In this document: positions 51,601 to 56,310 of the stretch, one piece after another | Position numbering within the stretch: the stretch's first letter is position 1 | How the letters are laid out: every line of letters begins with the position of its first letter | Program-made: the position numbers | NCBI RefSeq assembly: GCF_024700885.2 | Contig: NZ_CP117016.1 | DNA length: 64,000 nt | Reading direction: 5' to 3' (one strand) | Origin: Escherichia coli | GTDB lineage: Bacteria; Pseudomonadota; Gammaproteobacteria; Enterobacterales; Enterobacteriaceae

Positions 51601-54600
51601 GGTGAACTGCTGGCGGTATATGACCGCAGCAATACGCAGGTGCGCGCTTTCACGTATGACGCGCAGCACCCGGGCCGGATGGTGGCGCACCGTTACGCGG
51701 GAAGGCCGGAGATGCGCTACCGCTACGACGATGCGGGGCGGGTGGTGGAGCAGCTGAACCCGGCAGGCCTGAGTTACCGCTACCAGTATGAGCAGGACCG
51801 CATCACCGTCACGGACAGCCTGAACCGGCGTGAGGTGCTGCATACAGAAGGCGGGGCCGGGCTGAAGCGGGTGGTGAAAAAAGAACTGGCGGACGGCAGC
51901 GTCACGCGCAGCGGGTATGACCCGGTGGGGCGGCTTACGGCGCAGACGGACGCGGCGGGACGGCGGACAGAGTACGGTCTGAATGTGGTGTCAGGCGACA
52001 TCACGGACATCACCACGCCGGACGGGCGGGAGACGAAATTTTACTATAACGACGGGAACCTGGTGACGGCGGTGGTGTACCCGGACGGGCTGGAGAGCCG
52101 CCGGGCGTATGATGAGCGGGACAGGCTGGTATCGGAGACATCGCGCAGTGGGGACGTCATCCGGTATGCTTATGATAATCCGCACAGTGAATTACCGGCC
52201 ACGACAACAGATGCGACGGGCAGCACCCGGCAGATGACCTGGAGCCGCTACGGTCAGTTGCTGGCGTTCACCGACTGCTCGGGCTACCAGACCCGCTATG
52301 AGTATGACCGCTTCGGCCAGATGACGGCGGTCCACCGCGAGGAAGGCATCAGCCTTTACCGCCGCTATGACAACCGTGGCCGGTTAACCTCGGTGAAAGA
52401 CGCACAGGGCCGTGAAACGCGGTATGAATACAACGCCGCAGGCGACCTGACTGCCGTTATCACCCCGGACGGCAACCGGAGCGAGACACAGTACGATGCG
52501 TGGGGAAAGGCGGTCAGCACCACGCAGGGCGGGCTGACGCGCAGTATGGAGTATGACGCGGCAGGACGTGTCATCAGCCTGACCAACGAGAACGGCAGTC
52601 ACAGCGACTTCAGCTACGATGCGCTGGACCGCCTGGTACAGCAGGGCGGCTTTGACGGGCGGACGCAACGTTATCATTATGACCTGACCGGAAAACTCAC
52701 GCAGAGTGAAGATGAGGGGCTTGTCATCCTCTGGTACTACGATGAATCGGACCGTATCACTCACCGCACGGTGAACGGCGAACCGGCAGAGCAGTGGCAG
52801 TATGATGGCCACGGCTGGCTGAGAGAAATCAGCCACCTGAGCGAAGGCCACCGTGTGGCGGTCCACTACGGCTATGACGATAAAGGCCGTCTGACCAGTG
52901 AGCGCCAGACGGTGAAGAACCCGGAGACGGGGGAACTGCTGTGGCAGCATGAGACGAAACAGGCATACAACGAACAGGGGCTGGCAAACCGCGTCACGCC
53001 GGACAGCCTGCCGCCGGTGGAGTGGCTGACCTATGGCAGCGGTTACCTGGCGGGCATGAAGCTGGGCGGGACGCCGCGGGTCGAGTATACGCGGGACAGG
53101 CTGCACCGGGAGACGGTGCGCAGCTTCGGCAGCATGGCAGGCAGTAATGCCGCATACGAACTGACCAGCACATACACCCCCGCAGGTCAGTTACAGAGCC
53201 AGCACCTGAACAGCCTGGTGTATGACCGTGACTACGGGTGGAATGACAACGGCGACCTGGTGCGCATCAGCGGCCCGCGACAGACGCGGGAATACGGCTA
53301 CAGCGCCACGGGCAGGCTGGAGAGCGTGCGCACCCTCGCACCGGACCTGGACATCCGCATCCCGTATGCCACGGACCCGGCGGGCAACCGGCTGCCGGAC
53401 CCGGAGCTGCACCCGGACAGTACACTCACAGTGTGGCCGGATAACCGCATCGCGGAGGATGCGCACTATGTCTACCGCCACGATGAATACGGCAGGCTGA
53501 CGGAGAAGACGGACCGCATCCCGGCGGGTGTGATACGGACGGACGACGAGCGGACCCACCACTACCACTACGACAGCCAGCACCGCCTGGTGTTCTACAC
53601 GCGGATACAGCATGGCGAGCCACTGGTCGAGAGCCGCTACCTCTACGACCCGCTGGGACGGCGAATGGCGAAACGGGTATGGCGGCGGGAGCGTGACCTG
53701 ACGGGGTGGATGTCGCTGTCGCGTAAACCGGAAGTAACGTGGTACGGCTGGGACGGCGACCACCTGACGACGGTGCAGACCGACAGCACACGTATCCAGA
53801 CGGTATACGAGCCGGGAAGCTTCACACCGCTCATCCGCATCGAAACAGACAACGGCGAGCGGGAGAAAACGCAGCGGCGGAGCCTGGCGGAGAAGCTCCA
53901 GCAGGAAGGGAGCGAGGACGGACACGGCGTGGTGTTCCCGGCTGAACTGGTGCGGCTGCTGGACAGGCTGGAGGGGGAAATCCGGGCAGACCGCGTGAGC
54001 AGTGAAAGCCGCCAGTGGCTGGCACAGTGCGGGCTGACGGTGGAGCGGCTGGCGGCACAGATAGAGCCGGTTTATTTACCTGAGCGAAAAATTCATCTTT
54101 ATCACTGTGACCACCGGGGGCTGCCGCTGGCGCTCATCAGCGAAGACGGCAATACGGCGTGGAGCGGGGAGTATGATGAGTGGGGAAACCTGCTGAATGA
54201 GGAAAACCCGCATCACCTGCACCAGCCGTACCGTCTGCCAGGGCAGCAACACGATGAGGAGTCAGGGCTGTATTATAACCGGAACCGGTACTACAATCCG
54301 TTGCTGGGACGATATATTACTCAGGACCCGATTGGGCTGGCGGGGGGATGGAGTCTGTATGCGTATCCGCTGAATCCGGTGAATGGTATTGATCCATTAG
54401 GGTTAAGTCCTGCAGATGTAGCGTTAATGCGAAAAAAAGAACAACTAAACCATCAAAGAGCATGGGATATATTATCTGATACTTATGATGATATGAAGAG
54501 ATTAAATTTAGGTGGGACTGATCAATTTTTCCATTGTATGGCATTTTGTCGAGTGTCTAAATTAAATGACGCTGGTGTTAGCCGATCAGCGAAAGGGCTG

Positions 54601-56310
54601 GGTTATGAAAAAGAGATTAGAGATTACGGGTTAAATATGTTCGGTATGTACGGCAGAAAAGTAAAGTTATCCCATTCTGAGATGATTGAAGATAATAAAA
54701 AAGACTTGGCTGTAAATGAACATGGGTTGACATGTCCATTAACACAAGATTGCTCAAATAGATGTATTGATTATATTAATCCAGAGCATAAAAAAACGAT
54801 AAAGGCTTTACAAGATGCTGGCTATCTCAAGTAACATCTCAAAGATGGTAATATTTATTTTTGCTATTATAATCGTTGTTTTTTTATGCGTGACTACTTA
54901 TCTTTATTTACACAAAGATGAATCTCTTGTAAGTAAGCATTACATAAACTATATGGCAATACCAGAAAGTGATGGGGTTTTTACATGGCTCCCAGATTTT
55001 TTTCCGCATGTAGCGGTGGATATATCAATATCCACAAATGTAGAAGATGATTATTTTTTTTCTTATTTTTCCCTAACAATCGATGATGGGGGGAGGTTTA
55101 AGAAAACATTGACGGTGAGGGCCAGGGAACAAGTGGCGAAAATCGTATCAGAGAATGATCCAGATACAAAAAAAGTGTGGTGTAAATATGGTAAAATACC
55201 AGGGCAAGGGGATAGCGTAAACCTTTTTTTTGTTGGTGAAATTAATGTTACGCATTATTTTATAACAAATATTGGAGCTGGATTGCCTGATGCTTGTGCA
55301 GAGTAATTGCTTGAATTAAGAGTCTATCCCATATCGAAGTCGTCAACTTCGTAGTGAGGAAAAGTAAAATCCCTGACTGAGAAAAGACATGTCGGCTATT
55401 GTGTAAAGCCATATAGCTCAGACGATGAATATCTACTCGTATTCAGTTGTTTATTGAGGGTGAGTTCCGACCCTGAAACAACAAATAAAATGAACAGTCA
55501 GATAGTTTACATAGAATTGCACTGGTCTTTTACGATATCTGACATTGTGTAATACATATTCAGCCATGCATTAATTAAAATGTTTCGTGTTTAATGTGAG
55601 TCCCTATCTGAAAATAAATAATCCTTCCGGATTAAAATAAATTCTCGCCGGGAAAGAAAGAGGAAATAAACCATTAGCGGAAAACCAGCGGCACGCCAGG
55701 GTGACATGCCCCAGTACGGCGGCCCGATAGTCCAGGGTTCAGCGGGGGTACTGATAGTCGCGCCGACTGCATCGAGAACTCCATACAACTTTTTACGGAA
55801 CGTCACCTGATAAAATTTGTTCAGTATCGTCTTTTGAGATTCTCAAGGTTATGGAGTAACCAGACAGAACGGACACCACTGTCGGAGATAAAAACCCCCT
55901 GTTTACGCAGCTCGTTGCTGGCCCGGTGCTGACCATGTGTCGGGAAAGCGACGGTGTAATCAACAACAGCCTGTTCAGTTGCCTCATCGGTACGGTTCTT
56001 AAGGTTAGGAGCGCGGCGACTACGATTAATCTGCGCATCCACACCGCCTTCAGCGGCCAGTTCGCGGTAACGATAAAACGTTTCACGCGAAACGCCCATG
56101 ATTTTACAGGCTTTTGATACGTTGCTGAGTTCTTCAGCCAGATTGAGCAAACCGGCTTTGTGTTTGATGACGGGATTGGCAGTATGAAGCATGAGAGTTA
56201 CCTCTTGTTTTGGATAAGGATTCGACACTCATATCAAAACCGGTAACTCTCAACCTTTCAAGGCCATGTGTCAGATCAAGTCGCGACTAATACAAATACG
56301 TCCCTCATCA

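Follow-up and report, generated by a model that had tools for sequence, protein, structure and literature searches.

The 64,000-nucleotide stretch of the Escherichia coli chromosome analyzed here (the window; assembly GCF_024700885.2, contig NZ_CP117016.1) runs from adk to allW and carries a full-length rhs gene in the gene order of the K-12 rhsD locus (ybbP-rhsD-mnmH). Judged by sequence, the variable C-terminal tip of its product belongs to the prok-SAA family of the SAA-Wnt clade in the Lipocone superfamily and is a bacterial relative of animal serum amyloid A (SAA). The gene that follows, ybbD, encodes its candidate immunity protein. Our analysis found this family membership, a set of conserved residues and a conserved pairing of the tip with membrane- or lipid-anchored proteins of the YbbD type. 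The best overall explanation, to which we give an even chance, is that the tip is a toxin of the cell envelope that acts in the periplasm, with the Rhs protein as its carrier and YbbD as the protein that blocks it. The family assignment and the SAA likeness are already in print at the computational level, and the tip is not a new toxin type. The elements on which the argument turns are the following, in positions of the window.

50623-54834, plus strand: full-length rhs gene, an open reading frame (ORF) of 1403 amino acids with an N-terminal region, a YD-repeat shell, an Rhs-associated core and a variable tip.
54325-54405, plus strand: DPIGL-x17-DPLGL motif that closes the Rhs-associated core (DPIGL at 54325-54339, DPLGL at 54391-54405, residues 1257-1261), the putative autoproteolytic site of tip release.
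54406-54834, plus strand: predicted prok-SAA (Lipocone) toxin tip, 142 amino acids plus the stop codon (Rhs residues 1262-1403), assigned from SAA homology and the pocket residues D39, H43, E70, D73, D96, D100, N104 and G107.
54815-55306, plus strand: ybbD, intact, candidate immunity protein of 163 amino acids with an N-terminal membrane helix (residues ~8-32, nucleotides 54836-54910) and an alpha/beta domain; family NF011298.

The first-pass annotation of this stretch described the tip as a toxin domain of about 145 residues, of unknown type, with several cysteines and histidines. The domain is present and holds five of each, its length is 142 residues, and its type can be named from the Pfam match, the family profile and its identity to published members. 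The sole significant Pfam match is Serum amyloid A (PF00277, expect value (E) 2.5e-4, residues 17-107). A word-indexed protein search with the tip returned only near-identical fragments from E. coli and Hafnia; an exhaustive HMMER search of 1.84 billion representative sequences yielded 116 homologues at E<=1e-3, in nearly all of which the domain is C-terminal and lies immediately after an Rhs-type DPxGL motif. A family profile was derived from an alignment of 48 of these homologues (mean identity 28%) and, when compared with 177,635 PDB sequences, matched serum amyloid A chains only (E 4.4e-14 to 2.8e-7), with an alignment that covers the GxDxxFH motif, the H3 glutamate and the D-x3-N-x2-G motif. 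Taken individually, 28 of the 48 members match the Pfam SAA model, the best at E 2.8e-25. The AlphaFold2 (AF2) model of the tip is all-helical (predicted local distance difference test, pLDDT, 70), and SAA structures make up five of its six best Foldseek matches in the PDB (probability up to 0.97, template modelling (TM) score 0.63, E 0.4). Single-sequence phmmer matches of the tip to SAA chains in the PDB stayed below threshold (E 0.18-1.3) and were not relied on.

The Lipocone superfamily was defined by Burroughs, Nicastro and Aravind (eLife 2025, PMC12419801), who divided the bacterial part of the SAA-Wnt clade into two families, prok-SAA and Min-Wnt, both recruited as tips of polymorphic toxins. 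Over about 109 residues the window tip is 60% and 63% identical to HAU8267270.1 and WP_074823867.1, which are listed as Prok-SAA in the source data of that study; the exact E. coli tip sequence is absent from its Prok-SAA source file. The published family resembles the window tip in forming the C-terminal tips of RHS toxins, in its H/E/D pocket and N-x2-G motif, in probably being soluble, and in having immunity partners of the transmembrane or lipoprotein type. It differs in that its immunity domain is described as having four absolutely conserved cysteines, whereas YbbD has two partly conserved cysteines outside the transmembrane helix, and the published 'Imm-SAA' may or may not be YbbD_head. 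No experimental work on any bacterial SAA-type effector was found in the literature searched.

Vazquez-Lopez and Navarro-Garcia (2020, PMC7216683) had already modelled the tip of RhsD (z0651), encoded at the same locus in enterohaemorrhagic E. coli (EHEC; EDL933), on human SAA1 with a TM score of 0.62, and they read the PF00277 matches in O157:H7 Rhs proteins as possible host immunomodulation or aggregation. Following that proposal, the tip could mimic serum amyloid A in the host and act on inflammation, chemotaxis or amyloid aggregation, and the likeness to SAA1 agrees with our Foldseek result. However, a gene for a cognate, membrane-anchored immunity protein has been kept alongside the tip, the locus is found in commensal and laboratory E. 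coli with homologues in metagenomes, the polar pocket and the bacterial-specific cysteines are conserved, and in the published phylogeny SAA moved from bacteria to animals (PMC12419801). A host-directed function is thus extremely improbable in our view. Animal SAA (PF00277; PDB 4IP8, 6PXZ, 7ZH7) has the homologous helical domain but is secreted as a free apolipoprotein and has neither the twin C-x3-C motif nor an Rhs carrier nor an immunity partner, and the window tip has an additional C-terminal extension of about 35 residues.

Several conserved residues of the tip match features defined for the superfamily. Throughout the 48-sequence alignment D39, H43, C44, E70, D73, D100, N104, G107 and C120 are invariant, while M30, C48, D96 and C116 are nearly so (D96 is at least 90% conserved). 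The inferred ancestral Lipocone pocket consists of a histidine in helix 2, a glutamate in helix 3 and an aspartate in helix 4; helix 4 also bears an sNxxGR motif, and the four-helix cone is supplemented by a short fifth helix (PMC12419801). The tip places H43, E70 and D100 at the His, Glu and Asp positions and N104-x2-G107 at the sNxxGR motif; the region reads VNEHGL, with N104 and G107 invariant and valine at the 's' position. The twin C-x3-C motif consists, in the AF2 model, of C44/C48 on helix 36-52 and C116/C120 on helix 116-123, an arrangement that would suit two inter-helix disulfides. Since C44 is replaced by alanine in animal SAA and in some published prok-SAA members ('KYFHAKANC'), the cysteines appear to be structural and not catalytic.

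This bears on the possibility that the tip is a cytoplasmic enzyme, for example a Cys/His peptidase that uses the H43-C44 pair or, as with the majority of E. coli Rhs tips characterised so far, a nuclease. Both residues of the pair are invariant, Pfam gives a weak Peptidase_C7 match (E 0.034), and most of the tested E. coli Rhs C-terminal toxins (Rhs-CTs) are nucleases or peptidases (PMC6730261). The Peptidase_C7 match is non-significant and recurs weakly, at E<=0.1 in four of five close relatives but in one of the 48 sequences of the broad alignment, and we rejected it as noise. With C44 replaced in relatives, an immunity protein that is anchored by a membrane helix or a lipid and not cytosolic, and no similarity of the tip to any nuclease family, we regard a cytoplasmic enzyme as very improbable.

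The second pillar of the argument is ybbD, whose start overlaps the rhs stop by 20 nucleotides. A 163-residue AT-rich ORF with an N-terminal transmembrane helix had been noticed there in the first reading, and it bears this out: residues 8-26 are strongly hydrophobic (mean Kyte-Doolittle value 3.03), and the product scores 373 bits against NCBIfam NF011298 (YbbD; cut-off 326), with coverage of residues 1-163 of 163. Homologues of YbbD are matched by Pfam PF26610 (YbbD_head), and the AF2 model of YbbD reaches a pLDDT of 86. By our own arithmetic a 163-codon open frame would arise by chance at 35% GC with a probability of ~6e-6; together with the end-to-end NF011298 match, this means that the ybbD ORF is not a chance product. 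YbbD (window 54815-55303) also matches, with its residues 34-153, NF007301 (PRK09781), a hypothetical-protein equivalog of 181 amino acids, at E 1.8e-16 and far below its cut-off. The partial match suggests a paralogous enterobacterial immunity family.

The pairing was tested at six loci of other genomes and metagenomes, on contigs whose tips have diverged to 33-50% identity. At five of the six loci (35-50% identity) the tip is followed directly by a YbbD-like ORF of 143-173 amino acids, which has an N-terminal transmembrane helix or, at one locus (L013), a lipobox (LAAC), and which shares the motif '(I/V)P…W/LPxFFP…(D/N)I'. A YbbD hidden Markov model built from four clear members, with the transmembrane region removed, scored the other members at 49, 17.8 and 16.1 bits and the negative controls, YdcD and YbfC of K-12, at 0 or below. 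No similarity of YbbD to either of these K-12 proteins was found. At the sixth locus (L012) the ORF behind the tip encodes a lipoprotein for which no relation to YbbD could be demonstrated (3.4 bits), though it was included in alignment A4. The pairing of tip and YbbD-type ORF is thus, at the level of sequence, conserved across divergent loci. The first-pass annotation had read the two genes as a toxin and its immunity gene and had named lack of conservation of the ORF with the tip as a finding that would speak against this; the ORF belongs to a curated family and a YbbD-type ORF is kept at five of the six loci, so that the reading gains support.

We hypothesize that the shell of the Rhs protein encloses the tip, that the protein is exported, probably on the spike of a type VI secretion system (T6SS), and that the tip is released at the DPxGL motif. 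It would then act in the periplasm of neighbouring E. coli, on the cell envelope and not in the cytoplasm, and the twin C-x3-C motif would hold its fold by disulfides in this oxidising compartment. The polar pocket of H43, E70, D73, D96, D100 and N104 would most likely cleave the phosphate-linked head group off a membrane lipid carrier, for example lipid II or another undecaprenyl-pyrophosphate intermediate, as with the distant superfamily member TelC. YbbD would be a bitopic inner-membrane protein whose periplasmic alpha/beta domain binds and blocks the incoming toxin.

The individual steps differ in strength. A periplasmic site of action is quite likely, because the immunity proteins are anchored by a transmembrane helix or a lipid, which would place their domain on the periplasmic side of the membrane, because the twin C-x3-C motif is conserved in the tip, because TelC and BteO, the relatives studied by experiment, show toxicity only outside the cytoplasm, and because O157:H7 tolerates an intact toxin with a truncated ybbD, as expected if the toxin is harmless in the cytoplasm of its producer. 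All immunity proteins of Lipocone toxins are reported to be transmembrane proteins or lipoproteins (PMC12419801). TelC-TipC of Streptococcus intermedius, a lipid II phosphatase of a type VII secretion system and its partner, resembles the window pair in belonging, according to the literature, to the same superfamily, in being active only outside the cytoplasm and in having membrane-anchored immunity; it differs in clade, secretion system and type of organism. The prok-SAA profile matched no TelC chain in the PDB at E<=1, and the relation to TelC rests on the superfamily analysis in PMC12419801.

The carrier has the features expected of an Rhs polymorphic toxin, i.e., a YD/RHS-repeat shell and core, a DPxGL-x17-DPxGL boundary, a variable tip and a downstream candidate immunity gene. 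NCBIfam RHS_core (NF041261) scores 2736 bits over residues 1-1261, YD repeats (TIGR01643) are matched in 7 stretches, and the Rhs-associated core (TIGR03696) scores 84.9 bits over residues 1184-1261. Up to nucleotide 54377 the gene is 94.8% identical to K-12 rhsD. Release of the tip by autoproteolysis at DPxGL would be expected by analogy with known Rhs/TcC proteins. The N terminus is made up of two parts.

50623-50757, plus strand: N-terminal 45 amino acids, with a literal PAAR tetrapeptide at residues 5-8 (Pfam PAAR_motif, E 0.14 and 1.3 over ~20 residues).
50758-50991, plus strand: DUF6531 domain, residues 46-123 (Pfam PF20148, E 1.3e-18).

The significant N-terminal domain, as far as profile matches tell, is DUF6531 and not PAAR. 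The first reading had taken T6SS delivery from a PAAR N terminus; of this, delivery is still plausible, with a T6SS elsewhere in the best-matching genome, while no significant PAAR domain was found, and the original argument is weakly grounded. Delivery by a T6SS has, in our estimate, somewhat better than an even chance, since other E. coli Rhs-CTs are T6SS effectors (review PMC6730261). The best-matching genome is that of the human stool isolate MLI114, which is 100% identical to the window over the 1.4 kb around the toxin cassette (many other strains are 99.9% identical) and whose annotation was used for the window neighbourhood. By this annotation the window holds no T6SS genes, as had been stated before, and, in keeping with delivery, a complete T6SS cluster (tssA-M, hcp, vgrG) lies some 325 kb from the rhs locus in MLI114. 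The cluster lies at the aspV tRNA locus (record 4149504-4182072) and includes, beside vgrG and hcp, two damaged rhs genes, one frameshifted and one without its N terminus; the intact gene of the rhsD locus may therefore be among the few usable Rhs cargos of that strain.

The chemistry of the tip is the most tentative part of the explanation, and here a second model has to be weighed. In Lipocone proteins, activity on phosphate-linked lipid head groups is predicted on the model of PTDSS1/2 and TelC, which are proven enzymes (PMC12419801), and for the window tip we put such catalysis at slightly less than an even chance. Alternatively, the tip could be a non-enzymatic member of the same family in the same compartment, whose conserved groove binds the C-terminal domain by which OmpA-family proteins are anchored to peptidoglycan, so that the outer membrane loses its link to the wall, with YbbD competing for the groove. 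The precedent is BteO-BtiO of Bacteroides fragilis (PNAS 2025, PMC12541434; PDB 9UU0), in which the T6SS effector BteO is reported to be toxic only in the periplasm. We compared with the PDB a Min-Wnt profile made from six sequences of the PMC12419801 source data and the K-12 RhsE tip; it matched 9UU0 (E 2.5e-16), and metazoan Wnts came next (E 0.2-3). By this sequence criterion BteO belongs to Min-Wnt, the sister family of prok-SAA. A link between BteO and the Lipocone superfamily was not found in the literature searched, and the BteO paper, in the text searched, contains no mention of Wnt, TelC, lipid II or undecaprenyl.

The Min-Wnt and prok-SAA profiles align across the pocket (hhalign probability 70%, E 4e-5). 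The six BteO residues essential for toxicity and for binding of OmpA9, namely R143/H144, H167/E168 and D187/D191, coincide exactly with the motif positions of the Lipocone pocket, i.e., the His of helix 2, the Glu of helix 3 and the Asp of helix 4, and correspond to H43, E70, D96 and D100 of the tip. Mammalian SAA, moreover, has been reported to bind E. coli OmpA, according to a citation in PMC12419801. Nevertheless, He et al., in the text searched, assayed only peptidoglycan hydrolase and amidase activity and mention neither lipid II, undecaprenyl nor a phosphatase, which leaves room for lipid-carrier catalysis by BteO, and TelC and PTDSS1/2 use the same H/E/D triad for catalysis. The prok-SAA profile gave no match to 9UU0 in the PDB at E<=1, and the tip is not a Min-Wnt member. 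Unlike the tip, BteO is a stand-alone effector with its own transmembrane helix, and the similarity between them is at the profile level only; BtiO, unlike YbbD, is a mimic of the OmpA C-terminal domain with a signal peptide and is unrelated to YbbD, for which no OmpA-like fold was shown. Given that other superfamily members use this triad in catalysis, and that no such fold is seen in YbbD, we favour catalysis over OmpA binding, which we consider unlikely for the tip; the evidence leaves both models standing.

A second tip of this kind is present in K-12. The tip of the pseudogene rhsE (L004 ~3500-3939) has the pattern D-x3-H-C … H-E … M-D-L-K-N-N-x2-G, aligns with the prok-SAA profile (hhalign probability 76%, E 2.3e-5) and is 40% identical over 80 amino acids to a published Min-Wnt member. 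The downstream gene ydcD (L004 3923-4405) starts with a transmembrane helix and is unrelated in sequence to ybbD. Together with ylbH, the K-12 counterpart of the window tip, this indicates that K-12 carries two decayed Lipocone-type Rhs tips.

Several observations weigh against a periplasmic enzyme delivered by a T6SS. The arginine of sNxxGR is a leucine in the tip, and to our knowledge enzymatic activity has been shown for no SAA or prok-SAA protein. Within Min-Wnt only BteO has been studied, and it was published as a unique, non-enzymatic protein that binds OmpA, for which it needs the same pocket residues. On the side of delivery, the Pfam PAAR_motif match is partial and non-significant (E 0.14), no vgrG or eagR adjoins the rhs gene according to the MLI114 annotation, and K-12 retains rhs loci without any T6SS. 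A promoter and terminator scan of 54000-55900 gave nothing above shuffled expectation and nothing on the plus strand, so that no plus-strand promoter signal for ybbD was found there. The intact toxin beside a truncated ybbD in O157:H7 is explained equally well by a silent locus. This last point concerns a homopolymer in the immunity gene.

55054-55061, plus strand: T8 homopolymer inside ybbD; alignments show T7 in its place in K-12 and in O157:H7 H6437, where YbbD is truncated to 86 amino acids as a result.

The gene is intact in the window and frameshifted in K-12 and O157:H7, and in O157:H7 H6437 the truncated ybbD stands beside a full-length, intact toxin gene. The exact 163-residue and the exact 86-residue forms of YbbD each occur on at least 1000 contigs. 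The tract may be a switch, the truncated YbbD may still protect, or the locus may be silent. If rhs loci away from T6SS clusters were neither expressed nor exported, the module would be kept by linkage and recombination only. The decay of the K-12 copies (an orphan pseudogene tip and a frameshifted ybbD), the same frameshift beside an intact toxin in O157:H7, the abundance of the 86-residue form and the lack of vgrG, eagR or a promoter signal nearby would all fit such a silent cassette. Against it stand the two intact genes of the window, in AT-rich DNA where open frames are improbable, the at least 1000 contigs with the exact 163-residue protein, the pocket residues kept across very divergent homologues, and the T6SS with vgrG in MLI114; we consider it improbable. 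A periplasm-acting toxin blocked by YbbD is our preferred explanation.

The tip and ybbD form a compositionally distinct cassette behind the core.

54350-55660, no strand assigned: low-GC (~35%) cassette comprising the tip, ybbD and 366 nucleotides of non-coding DNA, delimited from the GC profile.

The first-pass annotation was right that the core ends at DPLGL (54391-54405) and that the composition switches sharply from GC-rich to AT-rich after it: the GC content is 63.7% in the rhs core and 35.0% in both the tip and the downstream ORF, in a window of 54.7%. The fall begins at ~54300-54400, the segment 54406-55660 has 35.1% GC, and the low-GC block extends to ~55660. In K-12 MG1655 the counterparts are the pseudogenes ylbH (b0499) for the tip and ybbD (b0501) for the ORF, which lie behind the main RhsD tip and ybbC. 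With an amino acid identity of 93% to K-12 ylbH and 92% to the O157:H7 tip, at the same site between ybbP and mnmH, the cassette is the common RhsD/ylbH tip of E. coli. Whereas ylbH is an orphan fragment in K-12, in the window the tip is fused to a full-length core.

The K-12 DNA aligns to the window up to 54377 (94.8%) and then again from 54126 onward (96.4%). These two overlapping pieces mean that the window is without 944 bp (K-12 record L002 8008-8951) that hold the main tip and ybbC of K-12. The K-12 ylbH orphan retains ~280 nucleotides of core, a homology that allows recombination; in the comparison of the window with this orphan the identity in the core is limited to the last 64 nucleotides before DPLGL, and no recombination junction was located. 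As the window core is ~5% diverged from K-12, the window did not arise by a recent deletion. Its arrangement agrees with the displacement-and-orphan model that has been published for rhs C termini. In reports on such modules (Jackson et al. 2009, PMC2935791; Salmonella orphan Rhs, PMC7043789), low-GC cassettes of tip and immunity gene are likewise swapped behind a conserved core. The record CP029992.1 (L005 1832-5667) contains an orphan array behind rhs with an Ntox16 fragment, a DUF6714 ORF, a prok-SAA tip with a YbbD_head ORF, and TseH with Imm58, in which the SAA-type cassette circulates as one module among several.

The tip was found in ~2730 of 5426 complete E. coli genomes, i.e., in about half, and the K-12-type ybbC-ylbH junction in 1841. 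Subtraction of the junction count from the tip count gives an estimate of ~900 genomes with the tip directly on a core; this arrangement was verified individually in the window, ST70, MLI114 and O157:H7 H6437.

Around the cassette the gene order is ybbA, ybbP, rhs, ybbD, ylbI, ylbG, mnmH and allS. Two remnants lie between ybbD and mnmH.

55673-55767, plus strand: ylbI, what remains of the 5' end of an rhs gene, 95 nucleotides that share 79% identity with window 50623-50717, with the start codon changed to ATT; annotated in K-12 (as a pseudogene) and in other strains.
55821-56228, minus strand: ylbG, a truncated helix-turn-helix transposase fragment of insertion sequence (IS) type that bounds the rhs element, identified from the ORF call and from annotation in K-12 and other strains.

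The ylbI remnant adjoins ylbG, and both are traces of an earlier rearrangement at the right end of the rhs element. Upstream of rhs, at window ~18200-42000 (MLI114 record 3846838-3871234), a giant BapA-related adhesin, SiiEA, is annotated with a gene of ~17 kb, accompanied by type I secretion genes (HlyD-family, ABC and TolC-family components) that flank cueR. In the same upstream region of MLI114 a YadA-like adhesin is annotated between ybbJ and cueR.

Although the module itself is ordinary for E. coli, the tip and YbbD form a small, genetically tractable pair in this species and a test bed for what SAA-type Lipocone domains do. The tip sits between two competing models, i.e., TelC-like cleavage of a lipid carrier and BteO-like binding of OmpA, and the strains in which ybbD is naturally broken (K-12, O157:H7) or intact (the window) would be ready-made sensitive and immune backgrounds. 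We propose, as a rather unlikely but possible outcome, that the RhsD tip is a working periplasmic enzyme that strips phosphate-linked head groups from undecaprenyl-linked precursors, and that the same chemistry explains the 'non-enzymatic' phenotype of BteO and the antibacterial and OmpA-associated behaviour of animal SAA. If true, SAA, a major acute-phase protein whose biochemical function is unclear, would gain a defined ancestral activity, which could be tested in K-12 with its naturally broken ybbD.

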